Source of the DNA: an uncultured Gemmatimonadota bacterium
Lineage (GTDB): Bacteria; JAAXHH01
DNA: 64,000 bases
NCBI GenBank assembly: GCA_964593235.1
Contig: CAZQGS010000026.1
Coordinates: 22,133 to 86,132, forward strand
Reading direction: 5' to 3'
In this document: positions 23,363 to 50,414 of the stretch, in pieces
Layout of the letters: each line of letters begins with the position of its first letter
Numbering within the stretch: position 1 is the stretch's first letter
Translations under genes and position numbers: made by a program
Notes under the pieces: model-generated
Seen by the model: only the letters and a program-made list of their open reading frames with translations
What the model was told of the DNA's origin: nothing
Databases searched by the model: none

Positions 23363-24637
23363 CTATGTTTTCCGTTTCTTTTTCTTTGCTGCCGGGAAGA
23401 GAACATTATTTAGAATAAGGCGGTATCCAGGGGAGTTTTTGTGGAGACTAAGATTTGTTGGGGGGTCGCCTACGAGATGTTCTTCATCTTCTGGATCGTG
23501 CCCTCCGTAAAATGTGAAAGTTCCCGCTCCGTAGTTCCCATGTATATACTTGATGTAGTCAGTCTCCGATTCCTTAGCCAGAACTACTGTCGTAGGTTTA
23601 AGGACCTGTCTACTGAAAGTGGTAGATAGTCCATAAAAACCAGCAATATAGTTTACGTGGTTTTGTGTAAGCATCGACGGAACAGGGTCATATTTAGCCG
23701 AAAAATCAAAAAGAGTAAATGGACCGGTTGGTATCTTAGTAGCGTTAACCTGGTTGACATCAATATTCGAAAAGGAACCGATAAAAGGGTTTAATTGTAG
23801 AGTAAAATCTTTAAAAGCAAAAGTTTGATCAAATTCCAACTTAGATTGGGCATCCGGATCAATAGGAGTATGATCGTATTCTGGTGCAACTATGTCGGTA
23901 TGATAGGAGGATAGAGCGATTTCTATGGTTTCTGTTGCAGCACACATTGCAAATAAAAAACCGCCGTTCCCCACATATTTTTGAATAGATCGTGCAACTG
24001 CTTTTTTTAATTCGGCAACTGTAGGATATCCCTGGTCCCTTGCTAGTGTTTCATCAGTCAGTTGCTGCTGTTGGTACCAAGGCATTCTGTGATAGCTGTA
24101 AAATTTGCTATATTGGCCAGTGAAATCTTCGTGGTGAAGATGTAACCAATCGAATTGATTCAGTTTCCCACCCAGTACCTCTTTGTCAAAGATGGTTTGG
24201 TACGGTACCTCAGCATATTTCAACGCCATGGTTACAGCGTCATCCCATGGGCGCTTATCAGGGCGAGTATACACTGCTATTTTGGGTACTTTTTCTAGTA
24301 TTACGCGGTCCATATTGTTGTCTTCAATAAGATCGTAAATCTGAGTTAACTCTGCTCCACTAAGGATTTTAAAACTAACACCTCGTAAATAACATGAGCG
24401 AGCCCGGTCAGTTGTTGGGTCCATAATAAATGAACCACCACGGTAGTTTAGTAGCCATTCGACGGTATAACCTTTTTCTAAAGCCTGAAAAGCAATGCCA
24501 TAAGCTTTGAGATGATCCTGCTGCTCCAAGTCCATTGGTATTAGTATCTTTTGAGCACTAGTGGTAAGCGGTACTATACAAAATCCCACAAATAAGAGAA
24601 TGAGTTTAGACATTTCTACTTCCCTAAGGTATGCCAA
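23363..24637 (-). CDS. Secreted protein of unknown function (signal peptide; possible class-I glutamine-amidotransferase-like/ThuA-like fold)
   Basis: 424 aa. MSKLILLFVGFCIVPLTTSAQ signal peptide (start probably at the internal MSKL). GGFLFAMCAATE nucleophile-elbow-like segment. Lys-rich C-terminus. Confidence 0.4.
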   Translation of the reverse strand: MAYLREVEMSKLILLFVGFCIVPLTTSAQKILIPMDLEQQDHLKAYGIAFQALEKGYTVEWLLNYRGGSFIMDPTTDRARSCYLRGVSFKILSGAELTQIYDLIEDNNMDRVILEKVPKIAVYTRPDKRPWDDAVTMALKYAEVPYQTIFDKEVLGGKLNQFDWLHLHHEDFTGQYSKFYSYHRMPWYQQQQLTDETLARDQGYPTVAELKKAVARSIQKYVGNGGFLFAMCAATETIEIALSSYHTDIVAPEYDHTPIDPDAQSKLEFDQTFAFKDFTLQLNPFIGSFSNIDVNQVNATKIPTGPFTLFDFSAKYDPVPSMLTQNHVNYIAGFYGLSTTFSRQVLKPTTVVLAKESETDYIKYIHGNYGAGTFTFYGGHDPEDEEHLVGDPPTNLSLHKNSPGYRLILNNVLFPAAKKKKRKT

Positions 24638-31131: not shown

Positions 31132-33588
31132 GTGTGTAAGCGCGTTTTTTTTAGCTTTGTTTTGTTACTGGTCTATTTTGATTTATTAAATGCTCAATCA
31201 TCAAGCTCAGTAGCGAATAAACAATATCTGCCACCGAGAGTACTGATTGTAGACTATGCCATGGCCTACCCTAAGGAAAACGCGGGCTTGGTACGAATAT
31301 TCAAGGAAGCAGGCTTTAATGTCAACCTCCGTTCATACTATCCTGCAATGGTAGGAAAAGACGTTTCTACTTATGATATTATAATTTTGCTGGGAGGCGG
31401 TGATCCTGGAATGAGCACTCAGGAAATTGATCTAGCTATCAATTATGTCTCCCGAGGGAAAACATTAATACTTGGAACACCATCCAATGGATTTTACGGA
31501 AAAAAGAGAAAAACTAACCCAGGTGTTCATGATCGGTATCAATTCAATAACTTACTTAATCGGCTGAAAATTAATCTTTTTGTGGTTAATGCTGATAATA
31601 AACTTAGCAAAAACCTGAACTCGGTAGCGAAATTTAACCCAGTTATAAACGATTCAGTTGGGAATAACCTGGGTGATGAAATATCTTTTCGTCCTGGCAC
31701 TCGTGTGTTAGTTGGATCGGGGGCTAAGCCCTTACTTGTAGAGTCAAAACTAATAAAAGCCAACAAAGCTAATCAACAGGAATCAGAAAAGGAGCCTAAA
31801 TACCGATTCATTCGCCGCAACCTCCGCATTCTTCCCTCAAATGCAATACCAGGAGAGAATATAAATTTGTTACTACGGGGCCGCCAAAAATTTCGAACAA
31901 ATTTGTACTTCAGGAGGCGAGAACGTTCAAAACCTGTAGATTGGGAGACATCAAAATTTAAGGGAGTAGTGGAAAGTATATCAGAAGCATTAGATACGCT
32001 CAAAATACGGATGCCTGGTAACCGTTGGGGTGCTGAATATGCGAGATTAAATGTTCCAACAAAAGTGATTGCAGATGCCTTTGTTAGTCGGGAAATTAGA
32101 GAAGTTATCCAGTCTGAAGATAGTCTTAAATCAATATGGGTTGATGAGGAAACCTATGGGCGTATGGCGATAGCTGCGGTGGGTAGAACAGGCCGCTTGA
32201 ACAAGGGTTTTGTATTGGTGGTGGACCGGGATATTCTAGCCGGAATTGATCTCCCCTTGCCACCACTAGGGATGCCTGAGGCAGAAACTGAAATTTTGGA
32301 GCAATTTTTGGGTATCCTTGCCCAGTATACTCGATCACTCATCGAAAATCCTACAAACTGGTCCTCCGATCACGACTATCCAGTGGCCCAGTTGCCAGGT
32401 AATCCGAAGTCCAATATAGCAATCAACAACATTTCTGTACTGGCTGATTTACCCGGTCGGGCGCAGAAAGTGCCATTTGTATCTCCTAGTATATCAGCTT
32501 CCGGTATGAAAATTGATAACATTCCAATACAATCTTATAATTCCCCATTGCGAGGAGTATGGGATTTTGTCACACGTCAGCATGATCATATTACTACCCT
32601 AGCTAATATTTTGCCTGAACTCAAAATGGATTTTTTGTGGACTGTAGCCCCAGTAGAAAGCTACCTCGGAGAGATTCCGATAGCAGGAGGGGTACGGTTT
32701 AAGTCATGGGCTGTACCAATTTCAGATTTACTAAGTAGTACTTCAACCGATTGGTACGTGGGGCTTACAGCGTTTAGTGCCATCGAGGGAGATTATGAAC
32801 AAGCTTTAGATGTTCGCGGTAAACCAACAGGATTACCTTCAAGGTTTGACATGGGTTATTTGAATAGATCTCTCTTTGAACCGTCTCGTATTATAGCTCG
32901 ACATAGTCTTAGTTATAATAATTTGAAGGGCATTATTCATGATTGGGAACCTCACATTAATAGGTTATTCAGATCTTATGGAATGATGGATATTTTTGAT
33001 GATTTACATTTCCAATACTTCACCCGCCATCTTGTTCAAACAGGATTTTATCAGGGAGAGGAACTTAAATCGTTTATACAACTTGGTCGGGACAAACGTT
33101 TCGAGTGGCTTCTGAAATCCGGATACTTAGCGACTTATTTCTCGATCCTGGAAACTAATGCAGAACGGCTAGGTATTCTTTATCGAAAAACGTTAGACGA
33201 AATAAATCCAGGCTTAATCCATGGAGCTTTTGTCCAATCCTTAAAACTAGATTGGTACTCTCTTGGTTTTTGGAAAGGAGTCGGTACACCAGATCGACCT
33301 TTTCTGATCTTCTCTTACCAACGTCCTCCAATATGGTTACGGCAGTTTCTTCGGGAGCGGAATATTTCAGCCCGAATACTTCCTGTTGGCTTGCTGGGCC
33401 TCCTAAACGAAAATGATATTGCCAATCTTCACATAGCAACCTCTGATTTAGGAGGATATGCACTAGAGCGTGGCATATGGCTCGTAGAAGATCCACCCAA
33501 AGATGTTGAGTTAAACGCTTTGCCGAAAAGTGTTCCCCGAGATGCTTTGCTAGATGTTATCCAGCGATCAAATGAGTATAGTGAATAA
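31132..33588 (+). CDS. Large secreted protein of unknown function
   Basis: 818 aa. Signal peptide MCKRVFFSFVLLLVYFDLLNAQ. No motif recognisable by eye. Confidence 0.35.
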   Translation: MCKRVFFSFVLLLVYFDLLNAQSSSSVANKQYLPPRVLIVDYAMAYPKENAGLVRIFKEAGFNVNLRSYYPAMVGKDVSTYDIIILLGGGDPGMSTQEIDLAINYVSRGKTLILGTPSNGFYGKKRKTNPGVHDRYQFNNLLNRLKINLFVVNADNKLSKNLNSVAKFNPVINDSVGNNLGDEISFRPGTRVLVGSGAKPLLVESKLIKANKANQQESEKEPKYRFIRRNLRILPSNAIPGENINLLLRGRQKFRTNLYFRRRERSKPVDWETSKFKGVVESISEALDTLKIRMPGNRWGAEYARLNVPTKVIADAFVSREIREVIQSEDSLKSIWVDEETYGRMAIAAVGRTGRLNKGFVLVVDRDILAGIDLPLPPLGMPEAETEILEQFLGILAQYTRSLIENPTNWSSDHDYPVAQLPGNPKSNIAINNISVLADLPGRAQKVPFVSPSISASGMKIDNIPIQSYNSPLRGVWDFVTRQHDHITTLANILPELKMDFLWTVAPVESYLGEIPIAGGVRFKSWAVPISDLLSSTSTDWYVGLTAFSAIEGDYEQALDVRGKPTGLPSRFDMGYLNRSLFEPSRIIARHSLSYNNLKGIIHDWEPHINRLFRSYGMMDIFDDLHFQYFTRHLVQTGFYQGEELKSFIQLGRDKRFEWLLKSGYLATYFSILETNAERLGILYRKTLDEINPGLIHGAFVQSLKLDWYSLGFWKGVGTPDRPFLIFSYQRPPIWLRQFLRERNISARILPVGLLGLLNENDIANLHIATSDLGGYALERGIWLVEDPPKDVELNALPKSVPRDALLDVIQRSNEYSE

Positions 33589-33861: not shown

Positions 33862-34476
33862 ATGGCCTATACTTCTCCTGGAGAAACCAGGAATAAAATC
33901 TACAGTTTTGTAAGGGAGCAGATCCTAAATGGAACACCACCCACAACTCGCGAAGTTCAATATGCTTTTGGATTTCGAGCAGTTCAGTCAGCTCGACAGC
34001 ATTTAGAGAAGTTGGTACTTGAGGGTAAGCTCGCTAAAGTGGATGGAATGTCACGAGCCTACCGATTACCGGAGTTTGGAAAAGTTAGTCCTCCCCAGTT
34101 AATCCCTATGTTAGGCCGTGTCCAAGCTGGAGAATTAACAGAGGCTATGGAGGATCCTTCAGAATATATAATGGTACAAACTCGTTTTGATGACAGTGAG
34201 CTTTTTGCACTGACGGTAGAGGGAGAAAGTATGCTAAATGCAGGTATTATGCCCGGAGATATGGTTGTTGTGCGCCGACAACCTACTGCTAGTTCGGGAG
34301 ACATCGTAGTAGCATTGATTGGTGAGGAAGCAACAGTCAAGCGGTACCGAGAACGAAATAGTAGTATTGAATTACATCCGGAGAATGACACTTTTTATCC
34401 AATAATTCCCGAGGAACTAGGGACATCATTTTCAATTTTGGGTAAGGTTATTGAGGTCCGACGGTGTGTAGAATAA
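33862..34476 (+). CDS. lexA: LexA repressor (S24 peptidase)
   Basis: 204 aa. wHTH N-domain, Ala-Gly cleavage site (VQAGE), catalytic Ser (GESM) and Lys (VKRY) in the C-domain. Confidence 0.9.
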   Translation: MAYTSPGETRNKIYSFVREQILNGTPPTTREVQYAFGFRAVQSARQHLEKLVLEGKLAKVDGMSRAYRLPEFGKVSPPQLIPMLGRVQAGELTEAMEDPSEYIMVQTRFDDSELFALTVEGESMLNAGIMPGDMVVVRRQPTASSGDIVVALIGEEATVKRYRERNSSIELHPENDTFYPIIPEELGTSFSILGKVIEVRRCVE

Positions 34477-34495
34477 AGTTAATATAGAAAGAAAA

Positions 34496-34515
34496 ATCGA
34501 AAAGTGTTCTTCGAT
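34496..34515 (+). promoter_or_regulatory. Inverted repeat ATCGAA-N8-TTCGAT upstream of imuA (candidate operator)
   Basis: Perfect 6-bp arms with 8-nt spacer (AAGTGTTC), 29 nt upstream of the imuA ATG, inside the short lexA-imuA intergenic region. Confidence 0.3.
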
Positions 34516-34543
34516 AGGTCAAAGAAATATCTAAGGAGTTTTC

Positions 34544-35179
34544 ATGTCAGGTATAAGTGTTCTGGATCTGCAGAATCACGATCTCTATTTTAAGCGAATT
34601 CCACGTGTAGATAAGAAAAAGAAACCGATATGGTCTCGGAAAGAACTGGCTGGACGTCTCTGCGAGTTGTCCTCTATCTATGGTACGGCACAGTTAACAG
34701 CTGCATTCCAATTGGTTTTAGACGCACAATTTGAAGGCGAACCAACCGCTTGGATCACAACGACGTTAGATACATTTTTTGCTCCTGATGCAGCAGAGGG
34801 TGGTGTGGACCTAGATGCTCTTGTAGTCATCCATGTCCCCAATACGGCAGCCGCAACGCGTGCGGCTGATCGGATTCTACAATCCGGGGGATTTGGATTG
34901 GTAGTAATGGATCTTCATGGTGATTCCAGAATTCCAATACCGATGCAAATGCGCTTAGTTCAGCAAGTTAGGGAATACAATACAGCCTTTTTATGCCTAA
35001 CTATCAAGTCCAAAGATATGCCTTCATTGGGACCGATGGTTTCTCTTAGAGGTCAGACATCTTGTCGTCGTCTGACGGTTGGACGTTTTCAATATGAAAT
35101 CGAAGTACTTAAGGACAGAAGTTATGGGCCAGGCTGGCATTATGCCGAAATCTGCCGTGGTCCGGACGGCTTGCATTAA
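34544..35179 (+). CDS. imuA: ImuA-like (SulA/RecA-fold) mutagenesis cassette protein
   Basis: 211 aa, degenerate RecA-like core (FGLVVMDLHG...), placed between lexA and a Y-family polymerase paralogue plus dnaE2. Confidence 0.65.
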   Translation: MSGISVLDLQNHDLYFKRIPRVDKKKKPIWSRKELAGRLCELSSIYGTAQLTAAFQLVLDAQFEGEPTAWITTTLDTFFAPDAAEGGVDLDALVVIHVPNTAAATRAADRILQSGGFGLVVMDLHGDSRIPIPMQMRLVQQVREYNTAFLCLTIKSKDMPSLGPMVSLRGQTSCRRLTVGRFQYEIEVLKDRSYGPGWHYAEICRGPDGLH

Positions 35180-36608
35180 TATCTGGGACTTGCCATTACA
35201 GATCCTATTAAGGAACCACCCAGAGTGGTGTAAAAAGCCAGTAGCTGTGGTAGAAGAAGAACAACCTTTGAGTCCTATTTTGTGGCTCAATGCAGCTGCT
35301 ATCCGGGCTGGTATTAAACCAGGGATGCGATATTCCTCGGCTCTATCTCTAGATCAGGGCCTGTGTGCAGGAACGATTTCAGATCAAGAAATACATTTTA
35401 CAATACAGAATATCCATATGGTACTCGATCATTTTAGCCCCTGTGTAGAACCAAGCAGGGAGGATCCTGGTATTTTCTGGTTAGATGCAAGTGGATTAAA
35501 TTTGCTCTACAGTTCCCTCAAAAATTGGGCGAGTCAGATTCAATCTAGTATTTTGCGTTTGGAATTAAAAGCTAGTATAGTAGTTGGCTTCAGCCGTTTC
35601 GGTACTTATGCAATTGCCAAGGGAAAAAAGGCAATGGTTGTAATGCCCACTATGGAAGTAGAAAATTACGAGAGTAACAGAGTCCATTTACAGCACTTTC
35701 AACTTCATTCTAAACTAAAAAAACAGTTAATCAAATTAGCAATACATACTGTAGATGACTTCCTCGCGCTTCCGCAAGAAAGTATAGTACAACATCTTGG
35801 TAAGCAGGCCAGAGATTTCTACCACTTCGCAATGAATGAACAATCTCTACCTCTTCAACCCCAAAAACTCCCTGAATCTTTTCAAGCCCAGATAGAATTA
35901 AGTAGAAATGAATCTAACTCTCAGAGTTTACTACTTCGAACATCTCAATTGTTAATACCCTTGCTAAATAAGATAGGGAATAAAGGGCAAGTAGTTGTGG
36001 CTCTTCGGTTAGAGTTTCGGTGTGAAAATGGAACTAGGTGTTATCACCGTATCCAGGCTGCAGAGCCCACCTTAAATGCCAAAATTTTGTTGGAACTTGT
36101 TGGTTTGAAACTGGAAACAATAACTTTTATTTTCCCTGTGGTAGAACTTTATCTCGAGGCAGAAGGTGTATGTTTTACAGATAAAAAAAGGAGTTTGTTT
36201 CGAGAGAACCCAATCCGTGATAAGAGCTCAGCTATGCGTGCATTAGCACGAGTGCGTGTTGAGTTTGGTACTAATTCAGTACTCATAGCCCAACTTAAAA
36301 AAGGACACCTACCAGAAGCTCGCTTTGAATGGTATCGCTTTGATAGACTCACAATTGCCAAGCCACGATCGGTATCCATACGTTCTCTGATACGTCGTAC
36401 TTATACACACCCTAGAGCGGTAGGTGATTTGCTATTAAAATATCCGCCATCCCCAATATCTTCCCACGAATATTTAATAAACGGGGGTTGGTGGTGTCGA
36501 GAAATCCGGAGAAATTACCGTTTTGTAGATACTAGAAAGGGTGAAACCCTTTGGGTTTATTATGACCACCGGAAACATAGTTGGTTCGTGCAGGGTTGTG
36601 TTGAATAA
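35142..36608 (+). CDS. imuB: ImuB, catalytically inactive Y-family polymerase paralogue (start uncertain: 35079/35124/35142)
   Basis: About 490-510 aa with Y-family (UmuC/DinB-like) palm/fingers arrangement but no catalytic DxD acidic motif recognisable by eye. Lies between imuA and dnaE2. The ORF-track start at 35079 overlaps imuA by 100 nt, so an internal Met is more plausible. Confidence 0.7.
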   Translation: MPKSAVVRTACINIWDLPLQILLRNHPEWCKKPVAVVEEEQPLSPILWLNAAAIRAGIKPGMRYSSALSLDQGLCAGTISDQEIHFTIQNIHMVLDHFSPCVEPSREDPGIFWLDASGLNLLYSSLKNWASQIQSSILRLELKASIVVGFSRFGTYAIAKGKKAMVVMPTMEVENYESNRVHLQHFQLHSKLKKQLIKLAIHTVDDFLALPQESIVQHLGKQARDFYHFAMNEQSLPLQPQKLPESFQAQIELSRNESNSQSLLLRTSQLLIPLLNKIGNKGQVVVALRLEFRCENGTRCYHRIQAAEPTLNAKILLELVGLKLETITFIFPVVELYLEAEGVCFTDKKRSLFRENPIRDKSSAMRALARVRVEFGTNSVLIAQLKKGHLPEARFEWYRFDRLTIAKPRSVSIRSLIRRTYTHPRAVGDLLLKYPPSPISSHEYLINGGWWCREIRRNYRFVDTRKGETLWVYYDHRKHSWFVQGCVE

Positions 36609-36641
36609 TTTCGAATAGAGTGTTTAACATTTATAATCATT

Positions 36642-39600
36642 ATGAATGATAATGTAACTGGCGTACGATCTTTATCGAACTCAAACAGTATGGTATCTCC
36701 AGCTAAAACTTATACCCCCCTTTGGTGCAAAAGTAATTATTCATTTCTGGAAGGAGCAAGCCATCCCGAAGAGCTGGTCGATTCCTGTAAGAATTTGGGT
36801 ATTACTTCTTTGTCGTTAACCGATCGTAATGGAGTTTACGGTATTATTCGTGCTCATGTCCGTGCTCGTGATTTAGATATCCATTTGATAGTAGGATCTC
36901 AAGTTAGTCTTCAGAATGGCTCAGATATTTTACTCCTAGCACAGAACCAGGAAGGTTATTCTCAACTCTGTCAGCTTCTGACTAACGGCCAACTACGTTC
37001 ACATAAGGGAGAATGCCGTGTGAGTTGGGAGGAAGTTTGTCATCATAATCCGGGGTTAATTGCGCTGTGGATTGGTGAATCCTATCCGATTAAATCAACT
37101 TTATCCGAAAATTATAATTCGACATTCATCTTGGAGCAACTTAAGTCAAACTTTGAAGATCGTTTGTACGTTTTGCTAGCTCGTCATCACCACGCAGAAG
37201 AACCCCTAAGAGAAATCCAGCTTCGGGAACTGGCGAACAAGTTAAGGGTGCCTACCGTAGCAGCTGTAGAAGTTCTCTATCATGTACCTGAACGTCGGCG
37301 TTTGCAAGATGTACTAACATGTATTAGGGAGGGGGTTACACTACCTGAGGCAGGACAATTAATCCGCCCGAACGATCAATATTTTATGAAAAGTATGGAT
37401 GATATGAAACGCCTATTTGCTGATGATTTAGTGTCACTCGAGCGAACTCGTGAGATATCTGAACGTTGTAATTTTCATCTCGGAGAAATACACTACCGTT
37501 ACCCACTGGAACGCCTTCCGAAAGGAAAAACCTCTATTCAGTACTTAGAAGAGCGAACCTTCGAGGGTGCAGCTCAACGTTTGGGTGACAAATTTGAAAC
37601 TCAGATTCCTCAGTTGAGAAAGGAACTTACATTAATAAGAGAATTAGAGTACGAAGGGTATTTCTTGACTATGTTCGAGATAGTAGAGTACTGTCGTCGT
37701 CAGAATATTATATGTCAGGGGCGTGGATCGGCAGCAAATTCTGCCGTATGTTTCTCCCTAGGTATCACAAGTGTTAATCCGACACAGGTGAATCTTCTCT
37801 TCGAACGTTTCCTATCGAGAGAAAGAGCTGAACCTCCAGATATTGACTTAGATATTGAGCATGATCGCCGAGAAGAAGTAATTCAATATGTGTACAGGAA
37901 GTATGGACGCTCGCATGCAGCTATGGTAGCTAATGTCGTTCGCTACCGATATCGTTCAGCTATTCGGGAGGTGGGTAAAGTGTTAGGAATTCCGGCTACT
38001 TCCTTAGATCAATTAGCCAAGCAGGTATCTCATGGGAACTGGAATGGAACCCTTTTTCGGAATACTGGTCTTGACCCAGAGAACCCAATCATACGTCACT
38101 TAAATATCCTAGTGAGAGAGATTCAACATTTCCCGCGCTATCTTTCTATTCATCCCGGAGGATTCCTAATAGGCCACCTTCCTATATACGAATTGGTACC
38201 GATAGAAAATGCTACTAAGAATAGGCGAACAGTAATCCAATGGGATAAAGAGGATGTGGAAAATGCAGGACTTTTTAAGGTTGATTTATTAGGCCTAGGC
38301 GCTCTAAACTTGTTGCATCGCGGATTTGATCTCTTGAGTCGGTACCGTCAGAAAGAACTTTCACTAGCTACGATCCCCAGGGATGATATTGCTACTTTCG
38401 ATCTTATTTGTCGAAGTGAAACAGTGGGTGTGTTTCAAATAGAGAGCCGAGCCCAGATGGCTATGTTAAGACGAATGAAACCCCGAAGTTACTATGACCT
38501 TGTAGTACAGATTAGTATTGTCCGACCTGGTCCAATAACGGGAGGTATGGTTCATCCGTACCTACGGAGGCGCAATAGGGAAGAATATGTGACATATCCT
38601 CATGAATCACTTATACCTGTCCTTAAAAAAACCCTGGGCGTTCCACTTTTTCAGGAGCAAGTGATGCAGTTAGCTATGGTTGCGGCAGACTACACGCCTG
38701 GAGAAGCTGACCAACTTAGACGGGATATGTCCGCTTGGCGGTTTTCAGGACGGATCGACCGGCATCGGGGACGTTTAATTTCGCGCATGGTGAAAAAAGG
38801 TATTGAAAAAAAATTTGCAAAGCAAGTATTTGAGCAGATTCGTGGGTTTGGTGAGTACGGGTTTCCAGAGAGTCATGCGGCTAGTTTCGCCCATATTGCT
38901 TATGCCACAGCATATATGAGGTGTCACTACCCAGCTGAGTTTATCTGTGCCCTACTTAATGCCCAACCTATGGGATTTTACACGCCAGCAACTATTGTCA
39001 ATGATGCCCGGATACATGGAATAGAGATACGATCAGTTGATATACGTCATAGTCGATGGGAATGTACGTTGGAAAAGATTGAGGATACGTCTGGAAAAGC
39101 TAATATCAAAAATAGTAATGTTGGTACTAAACACAAAATATTTGCGGTCCGAGTAGGTTTACGTTATATCCGTGGATTTGGGAAAAAAGATTGGGATAAA
39201 TTAGAATTAGCTATGTCTAAAGCACCTTTTCGTGATATTCAAGACATTGTTCAGCGAAGTGGTATTAACAAGGGGAAATTGGAATCTCTCGCAGTAGCTG
39301 GAGCTTTCAATTGCTTTGGCAAGGAACGTCGTTATTCTATCTGGGATATTTTGGGAACCAAAGAGTACTATCAATCTCCTTTGCTTTTAAAAATGGATAA
39401 CCCTCTTCCTAAATTTAAGTCTTTAGGTGACTTAGAAACTATCTGCTGGGATCACCAAACTTCCGGGCATAGTGTTCAAGGGCATCTCCTCAAGCCACGA
39501 CGCTCTGAACTAACAGCTCAAGGTATACCCACAGCACGAGAACTCAACAGGATGTCGGATGGTGATACAGTTAAGTATGTAGGGTTGGTTATTAGCCGTC

Positions 39601-39845
39601 AAAAACCGAAAACAGCTCAAGGCGTTACGTTTATGACATTAGAGGACGAAACAGGTTTTGTAAATCTAGTGATTTGGAAACAGGTTTTCGAAAATAATAT
39701 CACACTGGCAAAAAAACTGTATTATATGGGAGTTACTGGTAAACTTCAGGTAGGAGAAGGCCTTGTTCATTTAATTGTAAAGTCAATTTGGAACCCAGCA
39801 CTGGATGATCAACTTCTCTATTTACAAAGTAGAGATTTTCGTTAA
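36642..39845 (+). CDS. dnaE2: Error-prone DNA polymerase III alpha paralogue DnaE2 (ImuC)
   Basis: 1067 aa. PHP domain N-terminus, Pol IIIalpha palm/fingers (GRGSAANSAVCFSLGIT, DIDLDIEHDRR, GFLIGHLPIYELVPIE), OB domain at the C-terminus. No tau/beta-binding tail, and a typical DnaE2 length. Confidence 0.9.
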   Translation: MNDNVTGVRSLSNSNSMVSPAKTYTPLWCKSNYSFLEGASHPEELVDSCKNLGITSLSLTDRNGVYGIIRAHVRARDLDIHLIVGSQVSLQNGSDILLLAQNQEGYSQLCQLLTNGQLRSHKGECRVSWEEVCHHNPGLIALWIGESYPIKSTLSENYNSTFILEQLKSNFEDRLYVLLARHHHAEEPLREIQLRELANKLRVPTVAAVEVLYHVPERRRLQDVLTCIREGVTLPEAGQLIRPNDQYFMKSMDDMKRLFADDLVSLERTREISERCNFHLGEIHYRYPLERLPKGKTSIQYLEERTFEGAAQRLGDKFETQIPQLRKELTLIRELEYEGYFLTMFEIVEYCRRQNIICQGRGSAANSAVCFSLGITSVNPTQVNLLFERFLSRERAEPPDIDLDIEHDRREEVIQYVYRKYGRSHAAMVANVVRYRYRSAIREVGKVLGIPATSLDQLAKQVSHGNWNGTLFRNTGLDPENPIIRHLNILVREIQHFPRYLSIHPGGFLIGHLPIYELVPIENATKNRRTVIQWDKEDVENAGLFKVDLLGLGALNLLHRGFDLLSRYRQKELSLATIPRDDIATFDLICRSETVGVFQIESRAQMAMLRRMKPRSYYDLVVQISIVRPGPITGGMVHPYLRRRNREEYVTYPHESLIPVLKKTLGVPLFQEQVMQLAMVAADYTPGEADQLRRDMSAWRFSGRIDRHRGRLISRMVKKGIEKKFAKQVFEQIRGFGEYGFPESHAASFAHIAYATAYMRCHYPAEFICALLNAQPMGFYTPATIVNDARIHGIEIRSVDIRHSRWECTLEKIEDTSGKANIKNSNVGTKHKIFAVRVGLRYIRGFGKKDWDKLELAMSKAPFRDIQDIVQRSGINKGKLESLAVAGAFNCFGKERRYSIWDILGTKEYYQSPLLLKMDNPLPKFKSLGDLETICWDHQTSGHSVQGHLLKPRRSELTAQGIPTARELNRMSDGDTVKYVGLVISRQKPKTAQGVTFMTLEDETGFVNLVIWKQVFENNITLAKKLYYMGVTGKLQVGEGLVHLIVKSIWNPALDDQLLYLQSRDFR

Positions 39846-41486: not shown

Positions 41487-41962
41487 TAGATTTTTCTTCC
41501 AATAGAGAGAAGTAGCCTTTCCTTTAGTGCTCAATTCCCCTACGGTAATAGCCTGTTATAAGTTTATTTATCCAGTCAGCCTCAGTATACATAAAGAAAA
41601 GGAACAATTACAGCGCTAACGATATCAGCGGAAACAGAGACTTGAACGCCCCATAATAATTTATATAAGATGAAAAATTTTTATGGAATTAACAACTTTA
41701 TTGCGTTCCCACTTTAAGGACCGTTAAATCAGATTAAAAGGTTTTTGAAATACCTTTGGGGTTAATTTTACAATAGGTTTGTTAGTATTTTATTCTTAAT
41801 CTGGGGAAATTGTAACCTTTTGCTTGACTTTCATTTGGGAAACATTAGCTTGCTGACCGAAAATAGGCCTATGTTTGGATAATTTAGTGAAATTTATTAG
41901 CTGTTATTAATTATACTTAGCCTCCAAGCGCTATTCCCGCAGAAAGATCTCAAAGGAACCCC

Positions 41963-44167
41963 ATGCCGTTGTCCGACTCTCTGCCGGACCCAATACACAA
42001 GAAAATTGATCCGATACTCGATCCCAATGAAGAAATTCGATTGGCGTTGGAATCTGACTTAGATTCGGAAGGAAAATTTGTCCCTTCCTGGTTAGTTATT
42101 ACCGACCGTCAGGTTATGTCTCTCGGCCTTAACGGCAAAGGTGATGATATAGCCGTGCCGCTAGAGGAATTGAATAAGGTGTCAGTGGAGCCCCTTGTAG
42201 GTGGTTCATGCCTCGAAGTATCAACGAAAACAGATACAATACCATTAATACGATACTCCCATAGTAGGAATGATCGTTTTAATGAGGCTCATCGGGGCCT
42301 AGAACAGCAGATTAAAGATAAACCTTTCCTCATTAAGACGGATTTGCCACGCATTATTTGTGATAATTGTGGCCGTCGTTTACCGGTTAAAGATGGGTTA
42401 TGTCCAGCTTGCGTTAGTAAGTGGAGTATGCTAAAACGAATATGTTCTTATTTGAGAAGTTACAAAAAACATGCGATAGCTATGGTAGCTATATTTTCAG
42501 TATTAAGCCTTGCTGAGTTAGCCCCTCCCAAAGTAACACAGCTAATTATAGATGATGCTTTTGCCAGTAAAGATAAAGGACTATTGTTTTTTTATATCAT
42601 AATAATGGCTAGCTTGTTGGCTTTGCGTTGGATCAGTGAAATCTCTAATGGCTGGTTGTCGGCATGGTTAGGAGCTCGTGTGGTAGCAGATATACGGGAT
42701 CAGGTCTACCGTCACATAGAGTATCTGTCATTAGGGTTCCATGATAAACAGAAAACGGGGGCACTCCTTTCACGGGTAACTAACGACACCCGTAACGTAC
42801 GAGGTTTTCTCGTTGATGGGATGCCTTTTATCGTGCTTAGATGTTTCACGACGTTGGGGATTATTGGTATGTTATTTTATACTAACTGGATTTTAACTCT
42901 TTACATCCTGATTCCTGTGCCACTGATGATACTTTGGGGTAAATTTCTGTATCGCCGTCTTCGGATATTTTACACACGTCTTTATAGGCAATGGGAAGGA
43001 TTTTTTGCGCACATTCAGGAATCCTTGTCGGGAATCCGTATCGTAAAGGCTTTCGCACAAGAAACTAAGGAAGTTAACCGATTTAAAAGTAATGCTAGGG
43101 CTATGTTCGAACTTAGGTATTGGACAGAAAAGCAATGGATTAACTACTTTTCTACTATGGGACTTATAAATTTCCTGGGATTCGTTGTCGTCTGGTTTAT
43201 AGGAGGCCAGCAGGTTTTGGGTCAGGAGTTAACACTCGGTGAACTTATGCTATTTTACTTCTATCTACAAATGTTTTATGGGCCTCTACGCTGGCTTGGT
43301 AGAGTAAATAGTTGGATGACTCGGGCTATGAGCGCAGCTGAACGAATATTTGAAATAGTCGATACAGAACCGGAAGCCTATTCTAATCAAAATGCCAAAA
43401 GGATGGAAAACACACAGGGTGAAATAATTTTTGATAACGTAAGTTTTGGATATGAATCAGCACTGCCGGTTCTCAAGGATATCAGTTTACACATTCGCCC
43501 TGGTGAAATGGTAGGATTGGTTGGAAAGTCAGGTGCTGGAAAAAGTACAATGGTTAATTTAATATCTCGATTTTATGATGTAAATTATGGATCGATAAAA
43601 CTAGATGGAGTAGACCTACGAGATATTCGATTAGAAGATTTGCGGGGACATGTTGGTGTCGTCATGCAGGAACCAATCCTTTTTAGCGGGACAATTCGTG
43701 ACAACATTGCTTATGGAAGGCCAGAAGCAAGTTTTGAAGAAATAATGACGGCTGCTCGAGCAGCAAACGCTCATACTTTTATTTTGTCCAAACCATCAGG
43801 GTATGAAACATTTATTGGGGAGAAGGGGGCAGATCTTTCGGGTGGTGAAAGGCAGCGAATCACCATTGCCAGGGCAATTCTTCACGACCCTAAAATTTTG
43901 ATCTTAGATGAAGCGACCTCATCTGTAGACGCACAAACGGAAAAACAATTACAAGAAGCCATAGGGCGTTTAACCCAAGGGCGTACGACCATTGCTATAG
44001 CTCATCGGTTATCTACTCTTCGGGACGCAGATAAATTAGTGGTATTAGATCAAGGTTCTATCGTGGAAATTGGTACTCATGAAGAATTAATAAGAAAGCG
44101 AGGCCATTTCCACCAACTACTCCGGCTTCAACAGGCTGCCTCCCAAATTATGAAGAGAGTTAAATGA
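41963..44167 (+). CDS. ABC exporter half-transporter (TMD-NBD) with N-terminal bPH-like domain + CxxC..CxxC zinc ribbon, subunit 1
   Basis: 734 aa. Residues about 1-125 form a soluble domain (FVPSWLVITDRQVMSL... reminiscent of bacterial PH/YdbT-like domains). CDNCGRRLPVKDGLCPAC zinc ribbon. Six-TM type I exporter domain. NBD with Walker A GKSGAGKST, LSGGERQR, Walker B ILILDEATS. Confidence 0.8.
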   Translation: MPLSDSLPDPIHKKIDPILDPNEEIRLALESDLDSEGKFVPSWLVITDRQVMSLGLNGKGDDIAVPLEELNKVSVEPLVGGSCLEVSTKTDTIPLIRYSHSRNDRFNEAHRGLEQQIKDKPFLIKTDLPRIICDNCGRRLPVKDGLCPACVSKWSMLKRICSYLRSYKKHAIAMVAIFSVLSLAELAPPKVTQLIIDDAFASKDKGLLFFYIIIMASLLALRWISEISNGWLSAWLGARVVADIRDQVYRHIEYLSLGFHDKQKTGALLSRVTNDTRNVRGFLVDGMPFIVLRCFTTLGIIGMLFYTNWILTLYILIPVPLMILWGKFLYRRLRIFYTRLYRQWEGFFAHIQESLSGIRIVKAFAQETKEVNRFKSNARAMFELRYWTEKQWINYFSTMGLINFLGFVVVWFIGGQQVLGQELTLGELMLFYFYLQMFYGPLRWLGRVNSWMTRAMSAAERIFEIVDTEPEAYSNQNAKRMENTQGEIIFDNVSFGYESALPVLKDISLHIRPGEMVGLVGKSGAGKSTMVNLISRFYDVNYGSIKLDGVDLRDIRLEDLRGHVGVVMQEPILFSGTIRDNIAYGRPEASFEEIMTAARAANAHTFILSKPSGYETFIGEKGADLSGGERQRITIARAILHDPKILILDEATSSVDAQTEKQLQEAIGRLTQGRTTIAIAHRLSTLRDADKLVVLDQGSIVEIGTHEELIRKRGHFHQLLRLQQAASQIMKRVK

Positions 44168-44271
44168 TGTTTTTTAGCGCGTGGTACGGTCTAACAAGGT
44201 GAAGTTTTTCCACCAATTCGGATAGCATTGACAGGGAACTAATTTTACTGAAGAGATATGGAAATAGAAGA

Positions 44272-46551
44272 ATGCTAGGAAATAAAATCTACAAAGAAAA
44301 GATGCCGGTAATATTAAAAGAAAGTATCGAATCGGTTCTGCGTAATGGAGAAACCGTTATTATTGCGGCTGAAACTGACCTATCCAAAGATCTTAAATTT
44401 GAAAAACGTTGGTTAATAGTAACAAGTCAGCGTCTTATAGAGTTCGATCCAGGAAAGAAGAATATTTCTGAGGTTATTGAACTAGTGAATGTCCGTAAAA
44501 TTTTTATAGAAGATTTAGTTGGTTCGGCCAGGCTCAATGCAGAGATTGGGAATGAAATTGTTGAAATTGTACGTTTCACTCCCTCACTTCGTTCTAAGTT
44601 TGGGAACATTGTTCAAGGTATAGATCAGTTAATCAAGGATAAGCCTGTAAATTTAGATGTTGATATTGAAAAAAAACGTTGTGATAAGTGTAAAAGGCTT
44701 CTGCCCGACTCTTCGGGGTTTTGCCCATCCTGTCCAGATCGATTAGGGATGCTTCGACGAATTACGGGTTACATGGCTCCTTTTAAGGCTCGGGTTATAG
44801 TAATGGTTTCAATCTCGCTTCTGTATTCTCTTGCTGAACTTGGGCCACCTTACATAATGAAGAATATAATAGATGGTGTTCTAATCAATGCAGGTAGTGA
44901 TGTGTCGGAAGATGGGACCACCCTACTTTATCTTTTAGTCGCTGGGTTTGCGGTCATTCGACTAATTTCTTACGTATTAGAAATCATAGGCACCCGGCTC
45001 TCTTTATGGCTTGGAGGGCGGGTTACAGTATCTATTCGGGAGGAGCTATACGAAAACCTGTCGCGACTAAACATGAAATTTTATAACAAACGTAAAGTTG
45101 GATCACTGATTTCTCGTGTTTCTAATGACACAGAGAGCATGATGTCTTTTCTAGTAGATGGTGTGCCCTATATTCTGACGAATGCCCTCCTTCTAGTTGG
45201 AATATTGATTCTTCTTTTCGTCACGAGCTGGAAATTAACATTGCTCGTCCTTATTCCCATACCCTTGTTAATAATTGGTGGATGGTTCTTTTGGTATCGG
45301 CTGATCCGGGCCTATAGGAACAAATACTATAGGTGGAGCAAATTAATTGGCTTAACAAGCGAAATGCTCCACGCAGTACGCTTAATAAAAACGTTTGTGC
45401 AGGAAAAAAGAGAAATGGGACGTTTTAACGAAAACAATGAAGGTGTATTTAAAGGGGATTTTAATAGTGAAAAAGAAGCAGCTCTTTTCTTTGGAACGAT
45501 TAAAGTCATAACTTCTTCTGGCTTGGTTCTCGTCTGGTTCTACGGTGGCGAGGCCATTATCGATGAAACCTTCACACTGGGTTCTCTTATGATGTTTATA
45601 AGCTACTTATGGATGCTTTATGAACCTTTACAGTGGTTTGGTGAACTTAACACGTGGTCGAGTCGAGCTATGAGTGGCGCGGAAAAAGTTTTTGAAGTAA
45701 TCGATACTCCTGCTGAGACAGAAGATCAGAAAAACCCTGTTAAGATTCCTAGGATAAAAGGTCAGGTAGAATTTGAGAATGCTTATTTTTCTTATGAGAT
45801 TGGCACCCCAGTACTCCATGGAATAAACTTGTTAGTAAAGCCTGGAGAAATGATAGGTTTGGTAGGAAGATCAGGATCCGGAAAGTCCACATTAGTAAAT
45901 TTATTATGTCGATTTTACGATATAGATGAAGGTAAATTATCTATTGATGGTATTCCAATCAAAGATGTTAGATTAGAAGACCTGCGGCGCCAAATTGGAG
46001 TAGTATTGCAAGATTCTTTCTTTTTTAGTGGATCTATCGAAGAAAACATTCGGTATAGTAATCCCCAAGCTACTCTTGATCAAGTTATGACTGCAGCTCG
46101 AACAGCAAACGCTCATGACTTTATTTGTAGTAAACCAGACGGATATGATACTCGGATAGGTGATAATGGTAAGGGTTTGTCCGGAGGGGAAAAACAACGC
46201 TTATCAATAGCCCGAGCCATTCTACACAATCCCAGCATCCTAATTTTGGATGAGGCAACTTCTTCGGTTGATACCCATACAGAAAAACTGATTCAGGAAG
46301 CGATCGCTAACCTTGTCAAGGGTCGAACTACTTTCGCAATTGCCCATCGACTTTCTACACTACGAAGTGCTAATCGCTTGGTAGTTTTAGATGAAGGGAA
46401 CATTGTGGAAACTGGGAGCCACAACGAATTGATGGATTTGAAAGGCCATTTTTATCGTATGGTAGAAACACAGAGGAAAAGCACAGAAATAGTTGCTGTT
46501 AGTGGAAAGAAAAATTTAAGTAATAATCAAGTCATCGAGGTTAATAGATGA
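44272..46551 (+). CDS. ABC exporter half-transporter with N-terminal bPH-like domain + zinc ribbon, subunit 2 (paralogue; likely heterodimer partner)
   Basis: 759 aa, colinear with the previous protein including the N-terminal domain (KFEKRWLIVTSQRLIEF, IDQLIKDKP) and zinc ribbon (CDKCKRLLPDSSGFCPSC). Walker A GRSGSGKST, LSGGEKQR, ILILDEATS. Confidence 0.8.
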   Translation: MLGNKIYKEKMPVILKESIESVLRNGETVIIAAETDLSKDLKFEKRWLIVTSQRLIEFDPGKKNISEVIELVNVRKIFIEDLVGSARLNAEIGNEIVEIVRFTPSLRSKFGNIVQGIDQLIKDKPVNLDVDIEKKRCDKCKRLLPDSSGFCPSCPDRLGMLRRITGYMAPFKARVIVMVSISLLYSLAELGPPYIMKNIIDGVLINAGSDVSEDGTTLLYLLVAGFAVIRLISYVLEIIGTRLSLWLGGRVTVSIREELYENLSRLNMKFYNKRKVGSLISRVSNDTESMMSFLVDGVPYILTNALLLVGILILLFVTSWKLTLLVLIPIPLLIIGGWFFWYRLIRAYRNKYYRWSKLIGLTSEMLHAVRLIKTFVQEKREMGRFNENNEGVFKGDFNSEKEAALFFGTIKVITSSGLVLVWFYGGEAIIDETFTLGSLMMFISYLWMLYEPLQWFGELNTWSSRAMSGAEKVFEVIDTPAETEDQKNPVKIPRIKGQVEFENAYFSYEIGTPVLHGINLLVKPGEMIGLVGRSGSGKSTLVNLLCRFYDIDEGKLSIDGIPIKDVRLEDLRRQIGVVLQDSFFFSGSIEENIRYSNPQATLDQVMTAARTANAHDFICSKPDGYDTRIGDNGKGLSGGEKQRLSIARAILHNPSILILDEATSSVDTHTEKLIQEAIANLVKGRTTFAIAHRLSTLRSANRLVVLDEGNIVETGSHNELMDLKGHFYRMVETQRKSTEIVAVSGKKNLSNNQVIEVNR

Positions 46552-47096
46552 AAAAAGCAACAAAAACAGAAAAAGTGGAAATCTCTGAATTAGATATAGG
46601 GATAGAAAACGCCCCGACTGAACCTTATCTCGCCCATGAAATTAGGGTTTTCAGGGCTCCAAGTAATTCTGTCCGAATGACTGTACGCAATGAACGGTCC
46701 TATATAAGAGTCCGACCTGTACGAGCATCCCCAATAGCTCATCCCGAAACCTATGTTTCGCTACTTGATATTAAGAACGAAGAAGTTGCTTTCATTAAAA
46801 ATCTTGGTGATTTAGATGAAACATCACGAAAGGTTATAGAGGAAGAGTTAACTCATCGTTATTTAAAAGCCAAGATAGAGTGTATCTATTCTATACAGAT
46901 GGAATATGGTATTACTTACTGGGATGTAATGACGGACCGGGGGAAACGAGAATTCGTTATTAGGGGGTATGACAGCATACACTGGGTTACTAAAACCCGC
47001 CTTCTAATTACAGATGTAGATGGAAATCGTTTTGAAATTATCGACTACACCCAATTAGATCCTCTCAGTATCAACTTAATCGAAACTCATATCTGA
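46548..47096 (+). CDS. Soluble 182-aa protein translationally coupled to the ABC pair (possibly DUF1854-like; unverified)
   Basis: Its ATG overlaps the stop of the upstream ABC gene (ATGA). No TM segments. Basic/aromatic-rich, no catalytic motif recognisable by eye. Confidence 0.45.
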   Translation: MKKATKTEKVEISELDIGIENAPTEPYLAHEIRVFRAPSNSVRMTVRNERSYIRVRPVRASPIAHPETYVSLLDIKNEEVAFIKNLGDLDETSRKVIEEELTHRYLKAKIECIYSIQMEYGITYWDVMTDRGKREFVIRGYDSIHWVTKTRLLITDVDGNRFEIIDYTQLDPLSINLIETHI

Positions 47097-47181: not shown

Positions 47182-48021
47182 ATGGCAGACGAGGCAACCC
47201 GGAAAAAGTACAAACAACTTATTAAAAATGGATTCTGTATTTTTGATCAAGTCCTCGATCCCACCATGTTGGATAGAGTCCGGATGGTTTCTGATCAGTT
47301 ACTCAATCGTCAATCACAAGCTCATTTCAGGGAACAGAAATCCACTGGAAGTATGGTAAGTGTCTTTGATGATGTTTTTTTTGCTGAATTGGTATCGTAC
47401 CCACCTGCACTTTCTATTCTTTTTCGTCTTGGATTTGATCAACCTATTTGGTCCTCCGGATATATAATCAGCAAACCTCCAGGCAGCCCAGCCCTTTTTT
47501 GGCACCAGGATTGGTGGGGGTGGAATCATCCCTGCAGTTATAAACCTATCCCTCAACAAATTTTCCTTATGTATTACTTAGCTGATACAACTAAAAAAAA
47601 TGGATGCCTTAGAGTTATATCAGGATCTCACTTAAAACGTCATCCCATGCATAATCATGTTGATAAGGCACACACTGATGAACTAAGATCAATGGTTGAC
47701 CCTGAACATCCAGCGTACCAGCCAGTTGAGGGTGAATTAGATATTCCCGTTAAGGCTGGTGATTTGGTCATTGGGGATTCCCGGCTTCTACATGCAGCTC
47801 ACGGCAATAGTAGCGACTATCGACGAACAGTTATCACACTCTGGTATCTTCCATTATATTACCAATTGCCGGAGCCTATCCAAGCTTTTGTTGGGCGAAA
47901 TGTTCTTCCAGAAAAATGGTTAAATAGTGATGTGGGCCAAATAAAACCACTGACTGCTGTTTATGAGGGGTGTGAAGAGCCTATTGTTTGGAACCGAACA
48001 CCGAGTTCAGCTCTTAAGTAA
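47182..48021 (+). CDS. Phytanoyl-CoA dioxygenase (PhyH) family Fe(II)/2-oxoglutarate oxygenase
   Basis: 279 aa. HQDWWGW... (HxD) and ...LLHAAHGNSS (distal His) consistent with a PhyH-type double-stranded beta-helix. Confidence 0.7.
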   Translation: MADEATRKKYKQLIKNGFCIFDQVLDPTMLDRVRMVSDQLLNRQSQAHFREQKSTGSMVSVFDDVFFAELVSYPPALSILFRLGFDQPIWSSGYIISKPPGSPALFWHQDWWGWNHPCSYKPIPQQIFLMYYLADTTKKNGCLRVISGSHLKRHPMHNHVDKAHTDELRSMVDPEHPAYQPVEGELDIPVKAGDLVIGDSRLLHAAHGNSSDYRRTVITLWYLPLYYQLPEPIQAFVGRNVLPEKWLNSDVGQIKPLTAVYEGCEEPIVWNRTPSSALK

Positions 48022-48137
48022 GTAAACGACCCAATTTAAACTTTGTACTTAAGGGTAGACAGAAATTTCTTGTTATAAGTCCAAAGGACCTCCTGATTTG
48101 GTAGGTTTGTTTATCACAAAGGGTAACAGTTATTATT

Positions 48138-49580
48138 ATGAATAACTGTATTATGTATCAAGAAGCTTTCAGACCACAGTTCCACTTTACGGCTAATAAA
48201 CATTGGATAAACGATCCAAATGGATTGGTCTATTTTGATGGGGAATACCATCTTTACTTTCAACACACGCCAGGTAGTATGGTCCATGGTAGAACTACCT
48301 GGGGTCATGCTATTAGTACAAACCTCATTAATTGGGTTCAGTTGCATACCAAAGCATTAGACGTTGATGAAATGGGTTGGATGTGGTCTGGATCAGCAGC
48401 GGTTGATCATACTAATACGGGTGGTTTTCAGATTGGTAAAAACCCTCCTATGATAGCATTTTATACTGCAGGGGGAGCCAAAATGTATCCCACTAAACAG
48501 TGTGTTCAATGTATCGCTTTCAGTAATGATAGGGGGCGCTCCTGGACCAAATACGAGAGAAACCCTATTCTCGGGCATATCATAGGAGAAAACAGGGATC
48601 CAAAGGTTATTTGGCATAAGGGATCTCAGCAGTGGATTATGGCACTATTCCTTGATAATAATGACTATGCTATTTTTTCGTCTCAAGATTTAAAAACTTG
48701 GCGTCACCTACAAGATTTGACTTTACCTGGTGTTTCAGAATGTCCAGATCTATTTGAATTACCAGTGGATAACGATAGTACTAATACAAAGTGGGTGTTT
48801 TGGGGTGCAAGCGGGGGATATGTTATTGGAGACTTTAACGGAAAAGGTTTTACACAACAAACTGACGTACTGCAATCAGAATTTGGTAGCAACGGTTATG
48901 CAGCTCAGACCTGGAGCGATATACCAGATAAGGACGGCAGACGAATTCAAATTTCCTGGATGCGGGACGGCCAGTATCCAGGGATGCCTTTCAATCAGCA
49001 GATGTCATTTCCTGTAGAGTTGACGCTCCGAAGAACCATAGCTCAAGAAATTAGGTTATTCAGAGAGCCAATTCGAGAACTTGGATTACTTTATGCTAAT
49101 ACCTACACCTGGCCAGCAGGAGATCTTGCTGAGATGGCAATAGAACAATTTAATCTACGATACGCCTCAGGAAGTATTAGTCCTTATAGAGTTACTAATA
49201 GACAGGAAGCCGAATCTGTACTCATTATAGCTGATGAAGGAGAATTATTCGATGTACATATGGAACTTGAGTTAGATCAAGGGAAGAGCGTAGAAATTGA
49301 AGTGCAAGGGCATCCTTTAAAATATGATGGACGAAAAGAACAATTAGTATTTTCGGGAAAAAACGCACGTTTGAGAAAAATAAAAAAAGTTATTAAACTA
49401 CAGCTTCTTGTGGATCGAACCTCTATAGAAATTTTTGGTAATGACGGAGAGGTTACGATGTCGTTCTGCTTTCTTCCCAAAGCAAACAACTACCCATTAA
49501 CAATGAGAACTATAGATGGTGGTGTCCGTATAGTTTCCTTAACAGTCCACCGCCTTCGATCTGCCTGGGAGGATAGTTAG
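48138..49580 (+). CDS. Glycoside hydrolase family 32 (beta-fructofuranosidase/levanase/inulinase-like)
   Basis: 480 aa. GH32 nucleophile motif WINDPNGL, RDPKV motif, ECPDLF acid/base motif, C-terminal beta-sandwich. No obvious signal peptide. Confidence 0.85.
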   Translation: MNNCIMYQEAFRPQFHFTANKHWINDPNGLVYFDGEYHLYFQHTPGSMVHGRTTWGHAISTNLINWVQLHTKALDVDEMGWMWSGSAAVDHTNTGGFQIGKNPPMIAFYTAGGAKMYPTKQCVQCIAFSNDRGRSWTKYERNPILGHIIGENRDPKVIWHKGSQQWIMALFLDNNDYAIFSSQDLKTWRHLQDLTLPGVSECPDLFELPVDNDSTNTKWVFWGASGGYVIGDFNGKGFTQQTDVLQSEFGSNGYAAQTWSDIPDKDGRRIQISWMRDGQYPGMPFNQQMSFPVELTLRRTIAQEIRLFREPIRELGLLYANTYTWPAGDLAEMAIEQFNLRYASGSISPYRVTNRQEAESVLIIADEGELFDVHMELELDQGKSVEIEVQGHPLKYDGRKEQLVFSGKNARLRKIKKVIKLQLLVDRTSIEIFGNDGEVTMSFCFLPKANNYPLTMRTIDGGVRIVSLTVHRLRSAWEDS

Positions 49581-49676
49581 TTATTAGAGTATAACCCTTT
49601 TTAAGAAGCACTTCAGATTGATTTAGCCTCTGCCAAAACCATTTTATGTTCTGTAAAATTGCGATAGCTATCTGGT

Positions 49677-50414
49677 TCAACCAAATGCATCACAAAACTT
49701 TTGTGAACGGGTGTTCAGAAGGTTGTAAAAAGCCCGAACTTCTGAATCAGGGTGGTCTCGCCAGAAACCTGTGGGTATAGTTGTAAACTGGCTAAGGACA
49801 CCACCGTCTCTATGCCCATAGTATAACTGAACAGTTTTACGCTCATGAATGGTACGTCGCACTGTAGCAGCATGTACCACCGAGAGATTGAAAAGTATTA
49901 CCGTGCCAGGTGGCCCATAAATGTGTACTTTCCCGCGTTGTTGGATCTGTTCCTTTATAGGGAGGATGGGACTATCATAGGATTCTGGTGATATTGAAAA
50001 ACAGTGAGTCTTTTCATTAACTTCTGATAGATACAACATCATGTGAATAAATCCGCAGCGGTATGGCCGGTCTTTTATATGATCATGATCTCGGTGCCAT
50101 TCTTCAACAGGTTCTCCATCATGGGGGGTCATATGACGTAGGCATGCTTCTGCAAGACAACTTGGTCCCTTCAAGATAATTTCAATTGGATCTAGAAGTT
50201 TAGGGTGGCGAATCAAACTGTCAAAGTCTGGTGAAGAGATTAGGGGATCACAATTTACCCTTTGGTGTCCATTAAACGCTATAGGGTGCCAGAAATATTC
50301 AGAATCAGATAGATCTCGATCATAAAGTTCGGTATAATATTGCAATTCTGCATCAGAGAATACGCCCTCCAGTTGGACATACCCGTTACGTTCAAAAAAA
50401 TCGAGATCTACCAT
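49677..50414 (-). CDS. Second PhyH-family Fe(II)/2OG oxygenase
   Basis: 245 aa. EEWHRDHDHIKD (HxD) and ...LSVVHAATV distal His; PhyH-like. Confidence 0.6.
   Translation of the reverse strand: MVDLDFFERNGYVQLEGVFSDAELQYYTELYDRDLSDSEYFWHPIAFNGHQRVNCDPLISSPDFDSLIRHPKLLDPIEIILKGPSCLAEACLRHMTPHDGEPVEEWHRDHDHIKDRPYRCGFIHMMLYLSEVNEKTHCFSISPESYDSPILPIKEQIQQRGKVHIYGPPGTVILFNLSVVHAATVRRTIHERKTVQLYYGHRDGGVLSQFTTIPTGFWRDHPDSEVRAFYNLLNTRSQKFCDAFG

Follow-up and report, generated by a model that had tools for sequence, protein, structure and literature searches.

Within a 64,000-nucleotide stretch of DNA from an uncultured Gemmatimonadota bacterium (contig CAZQGS010000026.1, positions 22,133 to 86,132; hereafter the window), three consecutive genes on the same strand encode two paralogous ATP-binding cassette (ABC) half-transporters, ABC1 and ABC2, and a small soluble protein of the DUF1854 family (Table 1). 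All three open reading frames (ORFs) lie where the first-pass annotation had placed them, and public contigs from this organism, annotated independently, give ORFs of equal length. The stop codon of ABC2 and the start codon of the DUF1854 gene share the sequence ATGA, as noted in that annotation, and by such translational coupling the DUF1854 protein would most likely be made in step with ABC2. A short spacer separates ABC1 from ABC2 in the window, and in several relatives these two genes abut or overlap in longest-ORF calls.

Domain make-up of the three proteins

The two pumps were originally described as paralogous half-transporters with a shared N-terminal extension, and this description holds: full-length identity between them is 43%, with the first ~165 residues included, and each protein carries a transmembrane domain (TMD; ABC_membrane, PF00664, E=6.5e-48 and 7.3e-41) and a nucleotide-binding domain (NBD; ABC_tran, PF00005, E=1e-33 and 2e-34). 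In ABC1 a PH-like domain (residues ~25-117) is followed by a putative four-cysteine zinc ribbon, a helix (153-165), the TMD (~180-442) and the NBD (504-653 and beyond), and ABC2 has the same architecture. Walker A, Q-loop, LSGGE, Walker B-Glu, D-loop and H-loop all match consensus in both NBDs, as is expected of half-transporters of type-I-fold ABC exporters, and a degenerate ATP site of the kind found in heterodimeric exporters was thus ruled out; with these motifs in both subunits, the two ATP sites of the presumed heterodimer are predicted to be catalytically competent. In the known heterodimeric exporters TM287/288, BmrCD and TmrAB, one of the ATP sites is typically degenerate and accessory domains are usually lacking. 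Like the presumed heterodimer described here, they are encoded by two neighboring paralogous half-transporter genes, but they differ from it in that both of its ATP sites are of consensus type and both of its subunits carry the N-terminal PH and zinc-ribbon (PH-ZnR) module.

This module runs from an acidic PH fold through a basic putative zinc ribbon to a helix preceding the first transmembrane helix (TM1). The motifs quoted earlier for the PH domain (WLVITDRQ in one pump, WLIVTSQR in the other) and for the linker (QQIKDKP and QLIKDKP) are present, and the PH fold itself was borne out: a seven-stranded beta-sandwich capped by a C-terminal helix that resembles solved PH domains, with the GRAM domains of Lam6 and myotubularin among its structural neighbors and protein-binding PH domains among its closest folds. 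The proposed assignment to the YdbT-like family (bPH_2) did not survive, as PF03703 gave no match at E<=1 in either pump; the nearest Pfam family is bPH_3 (PF14470), which is sub-threshold in ABC2 (E=0.07), gives no match in a Pfam scan of ABC1 and is significant in four of 24 homologues. The window sequences thus fall below every Pfam bPH threshold. Among known bacterial PH proteins the comparators are PHb1/DUF1696 (3dcx, 3hsa), PHb2 (3b77), bPH_3 and the YdbS/YdbT-like DdE/DdF; unlike in these, the PH domain is here fused to a pump and followed by a putative zinc ribbon, and it is soluble rather than placed between transmembrane helices. Bacterial PH-domain proteins of the DdE/DdF (YdbS/YdbT-like) type have been implicated in the ABC-linked export of leaderless bacteriocins (PMC8657885), a precedent for the role proposed below.

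The putative zinc ribbon expected ahead of TM1 has the spacing CxxC-x10-CxxC (C133-x2-C136-x10-C147-x2-C150 in ABC1; cysteines 137, 140, 151 and 154 in ABC2). Its four cysteines are invariant across 35 diverse homologues, and its Pfam matches are sub-threshold (DZR, E=0.03; Zn_ribbon_15, E=0.02). The extension does not correspond to the familiar accessory domain of exporters, since Peptidase_C39 found no match in either pump in a Pfam scan and the fold is that of a PH domain. A word-index search with the module alone gave five matches, and an exhaustive HMMER search was needed for a census; this profile search found 895 representative protein clusters with the module, which is N-terminal in every one of them.

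The third protein, guessed at the outset to be DUF1854, matches PF08909 with 140.8 bits (E=2.8e-41, 128 of 130 model positions; gathering threshold 26.8 bits). It is soluble, and acidic rather than basic as first described (isoelectric point (pI) 5.8; family median 5.2), and it consists of two beta-rich halves with a helix at the end of each and contains an invariant motif, DVDGNRFE (residues 156-163). Solved structures related by sequence were found neither for the N-terminal module nor for DUF1854.

Conservation of the trio and ancestry of the pump pair

When species-representative genomes were scanned with the DUF1854 protein as query, 20 loci at 70-77% identity were recovered, all in metagenome-assembled genomes (MAGs) that bear the label Latescibacterota, Gemmatimonadota or just "bacterium", several with isolate names that suggest sponge or coral samples. 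The order ABC1-ABC2-DUF1854 is kept in all 20. Upstream genes vary among them, and most retain the downstream block of PhyH and GH32 genes. A scan of metagenomes yielded 398 relatives, for 80 of which the loci were fetched, and the DUF1854 profile matches 1,938 clusters at 90% identity. Outside the clade of the window, and counting loci with at least 4.9 kb of upstream sequence, two PH-ZnR pumps accompany DUF1854 in about 14 loci (12 plus L045 and L046), one pump does so in six, and in seven there is either no pump or only the remnants of one.

The pairing of module and DUF1854 was obligate from the side of the pump. Wherever a complete ABC gene lies immediately before DUF1854, it bears the N-terminal module and, in the reverse direction, all four informative finds made with the module alone have DUF1854 either downstream (P0187, P0155, P0127) or fused to the same polypeptide (P0112). 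The gap between ABC and DUF1854 genes is 30 nt or less in 48 of 66 loci, with an exact 4-nt overlap in 12. By the presence of the module and of DUF1854 downstream or fused, the window trio belongs to a superfamily, delineated in this analysis, of DUF1854-associated PH-ZnR ABC exporters, and the neighborhood census upheld the expectation that the three genes travel as a unit: the trio is a genuine, anciently conserved one. In a neighbor-joining (NJ) tree of the TMD and NBD region, first-position pumps, ABC1 among them, form one clade and second-position pumps, including ABC2, another, and the single-gene versions are basal. Given these separate clades, the pump pair is, as judged from this tree, the product of one ancient duplication whose gene order has been preserved across diverse lineages.

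Several loci depart from the common layout. In four of them (L062, L067, L069, L076) all that precedes an intact DUF1854 gene, about 1 kb upstream of it, are short, scrambled pieces of what was a PH-ZnR ABC gene, and the pump appears to have decayed there and DUF1854 to have been retained; two others (L074, L081) have DUF1854 and no adjacent pump. One group of metagenomic loci carries, downstream of DUF1854, a conventional ABC exporter (570-656 aa, no PH-ZnR module, ~32% identity to ABC1; Table 1). In a distant relative (L110/L111:4751-7558), a gene of 935 aa that neither Pfam nor NCBIfam matches lies directly before a single PH-ZnR ABC gene and DUF1854, on the same strand. The fusion gene P0112 begins within the end of a 422-aa gene upstream and is followed by genes of 392 aa and 145 aa, none of these three neighbors being matched to a family. 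A 750-aa protein combining PH-ZnR, ABC_membrane and PseudoU_synth_2 (P0188, L113:1558-3810) lies on a 4-kb contig and was set aside, as it is probably an assembly chimera and not a divergent member.

The cyanophycin-associated family and candidate roles

The architecture is not new as such. NCBIfam holds two equivalog models, NF052233 for a "cyanophycin metabolism-associated ABC transporter" (766 positions, cut-off 880 bits) and NF052234 for the DUF1854 protein associated with it (cut-off 150 bits), and these are the top NCBIfam matches of the window proteins, with 600.7 bits for ABC1, 594.8 for ABC2 and 105.6 for DUF1854, all under the cut-offs. The pump alignments begin at model positions 14 (ABC1 residue 6) and 13 (ABC2 residue 9), so the model covers the N-terminal module. 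NF052233 is also the best match for all 24 diverse full-length homologues, and in the window it scores well above MsbA and other exporter models (second-best, MsbA-type, 445-484 bits). The first-pass annotation had called the architecture undescribed; this holds only in part, in view of the full-length models, but the PH and zinc-ribbon nature of the extension was found described in no paper, and our literature search returned nothing on the system beyond Price et al. (bioRxiv 10.1101/072470). The catalogued systems share with the window the full-length order of N-terminal extension, TMD and NBD and the DUF1854 gene directly downstream; Price et al. mention a single ABC-like transporter, whereas here there are two paralogous pumps, below the cut-offs and with no cphA nearby. 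The locus is thus a variant of a catalogued, experimentally uncharacterised family, a presumed heterodimer by duplication that is not linked to cphA.

On balance, we lean towards a heterodimeric exporter that uses its PH-ZnR domains and the DUF1854 subunit to recruit, or to gate, a substrate from the cytoplasm. ABC1 and ABC2 would form a type-I-fold (MsbA/Sav1866-like) pump with a dedicated cytoplasmic accessory subunit, each half presenting at the cytoplasmic face, ahead of TM1, a PH-fold domain, a short linker and a four-cysteine zinc ribbon. Since DUF1854 is either co-translated with the pump or fused after the NBD, it would most likely dock on the pump's cytoplasmic side, where, jointly with the PH-ZnR modules, it would most likely recruit a cytoplasmically made substrate or gate its passage. 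The module occupies the position that C39 or C39-like domains take in peptide and protein exporters. PCAT1 and the HlyB family have in common with these pumps the type-I exporter fold and a cytoplasmic accessory domain ahead of TM1, the substrate-recruiting site, and the relatedness of the core is seen in matches to TIGR01846, TIGR01193 and TIGR03796; the accessory domain is a papain-like C39 in those exporters and a PH fold with a putative zinc ribbon here. Neither HlyD/TolC partners nor a gene for a leader-peptide substrate was found near the trio. The pairing of a PH-ZnR module with a soluble subunit of its own would be a novel kind of accessory equipment for an ABC exporter.

Several points weigh against this proposal. 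The NJ tree is distance-based and carries no support values, the structural search found no informative structural relative of DUF1854, and our literature search found no biochemical work on any family member. The fold family is the one basis on which the direction of transport is predicted. No substrate-synthesis gene was found consistently nearby at the related loci and, given that some lineages hold DUF1854 with the PH-ZnR ABC gene decayed or absent, a strict dependence of DUF1854 on this pump may not hold.

The best NCBIfam matches of all three proteins would also suit an orthologous exporter of cyanophycin or a cyanophycin-like polyamide, with cphA elsewhere in the genome. In two beta-proteobacteria, Acidovorax 3H11 and Cupriavidus basilensis 4G11, cofitness links cphA/cphA' with DUF1854 and the ABC transporter beside it, and DUF1854 was proposed to be a subunit of an efflux pump for amino-acid polymers (Price et al., bioRxiv 10.1101/072470). 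This link to cyanophycin synthetase is the only functional hint for the family and bears on whether such polyamides are exported at all, as no export process for cyanophycin is known (Sharon et al. 2023, PMC9974463). For the window we regard orthology in this sense as improbable, given that the scores are far under the equivalog cut-offs and that a cphA-like gene (ATP-grasp plus Mur-ligase, ~900 aa) was found neither in the 64-kb window nor in the sequence flanking about 115 related loci. The sole ATP-grasp gene of the window is LysX/RimK-like and its sole Mur-ligase gene has MurD-type domains, and the Mur ligase that recurs at related loci is a genuine MurD. Cyanophycinase, or any other consistent partner, was likewise sought near the module and not found in the window or at related loci. 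The genes that do recur nearby, all within a single marine lineage, have housekeeping functions (among them MurB, MurD, PAPS reductase and GlnA) and point to no functional partner. While the beta-proteobacterial branch is genetically tied to CphA/CphA' polyamide synthetases, the window branch is not cphA-linked and, as the sampled loci all lack a nearby cphA-like gene, the name "cyanophycin-associated" should not pass to most members.

A lipid or glycolipid flippase (MsbA/PglK-like), with PH domains binding lipid headgroups and DUF1854 acting as a regulator, would fit the MsbA-type models as runners-up and the frequency of lipid binding among PH and GRAM domains, the latter represented among the structural neighbors; the PH domain is acidic (family median pI 5.1), a surface that disfavors the binding of anionic-lipid headgroups, and we think this role unlikely. 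Equally doubtful is a general pump for the efflux of drugs or metabolites in which the PH-ZnR module and DUF1854 serve regulation alone, through auto-inhibition or by sensing a signal in the cytoplasm: multidrug pumps are common among heterodimeric type-I exporters, a TetR-family gene lies directly upstream in one relative (L112) and pleiotropic stress phenotypes are reported for relatives, but no regulator is conserved beside the module at the related loci, and an accessory protein that is dedicated, sometimes fused, strictly co-inherited and marked by an invariant motif suggests a specific function.

With regard to the recruiting or gating exporter, a wider reading can be offered tentatively, and we would not favor it as it stands: PH/zinc-ribbon pumps with DUF1854 could represent a widespread, mechanistically distinct exporter class, in which the PH domains of the pumps and a soluble PH-superfold-like subunit capture a polymer or peptide made in the cytoplasm and pass it into the translocation path, the cphA-linked branch being the first known export route for a non-ribosomal polyamide and the heterodimeric branch exporting a different product. 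The family is large and mechanistically unexplored, spanning Latescibacterota- and Gemmatimonadota-labelled MAGs, Poribacteria, a planctomycete-like gene context, marine metagenomes and beta-proteobacteria, and nothing at the window locus indicates the substrate or a surprising function.

Upstream region and genomic surroundings

The AT-rich region upstream of ABC1 has the size given at first and a GC content of 34.2% (about 41% for the window), but the "complex regulation" once read into it is unsupported. Rfam returned no match at E<=1 in the 476 nt, blastn detected no nucleotide similarity to it in the 20 related loci, its promoter-like and terminator-like sites are not enriched over shuffled sequences and its largest ORFs reach 47 aa or less; a regulatory RNA or conserved leader was therefore rejected. 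One sigma-70-like match (TTGAAA-18-TACAAT, 41745-41774) is present and the region presumably holds a promoter, its length being due to the position of the module at a synteny break.

Table 1 Positions of the trio, of genes upstream of it in the window and of selected genes at related loci
Feature	Position	Strand	Remarks
ABC1	41963..44167	+	734 aa
ABC2	44272..46551	+	759 aa
DUF1854 gene	46548..47096	+	182 aa; start overlaps ABC2 stop
N-terminal cytoplasmic module of ABC1	41963..42466	+	residues 1-168
ABC1-ABC2 spacer	44168..44271	+	104 nt
Upstream intergenic region	41487..41962	+	476 nt, AT-rich
LexA	33862-34476	+	
ImuA-position gene	34544-35179	+	211 aa, no Pfam match
ImuB	35079-36608	+	IMS domain
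DnaE2	36642-39845	+	
P0112, natural fusion PH-ZnR-TMD-NBD-DUF1854	L114:3600-6341		913 aa
Conventional exporter	L057:10750-12498		
Conventional exporter	L075:3311-5026		
Conventional exporter	L079:8437-10407		
Conventional exporter	L071:5966-7678		

Upstream of the trio lie a LexA-ImuA-ImuB-DnaE2 cassette and an M20 amidohydrolase gene, and downstream of it genes for PhyH, GH32, PhyH and an aminotransferase. The former is a complete SOS mutagenesis cassette (33862-39845, + strand) directly before the M20 gene, and it is not adjacent to the trio in related genomes. Directly after the trio (47182-50414), a GH32 glycoside hydrolase gene sits between two genes for PhyH-family dioxygenases, and this block recurs, with variable insertions, in most of the 20 related genomes (L001-L020). 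Two further ORFs of the window, of 818 aa (31132-33588, + strand) and 424 aa (23363-24637, - strand), have no Pfam match at E<=1e-5. The LysX/RimK-type ATP-grasp gene (6095-6946, + strand) is followed by a run of tightly spaced co-directional genes, two pairs of which overlap by 1-4 nt and one of which encodes a histidyl-tRNA synthetase.

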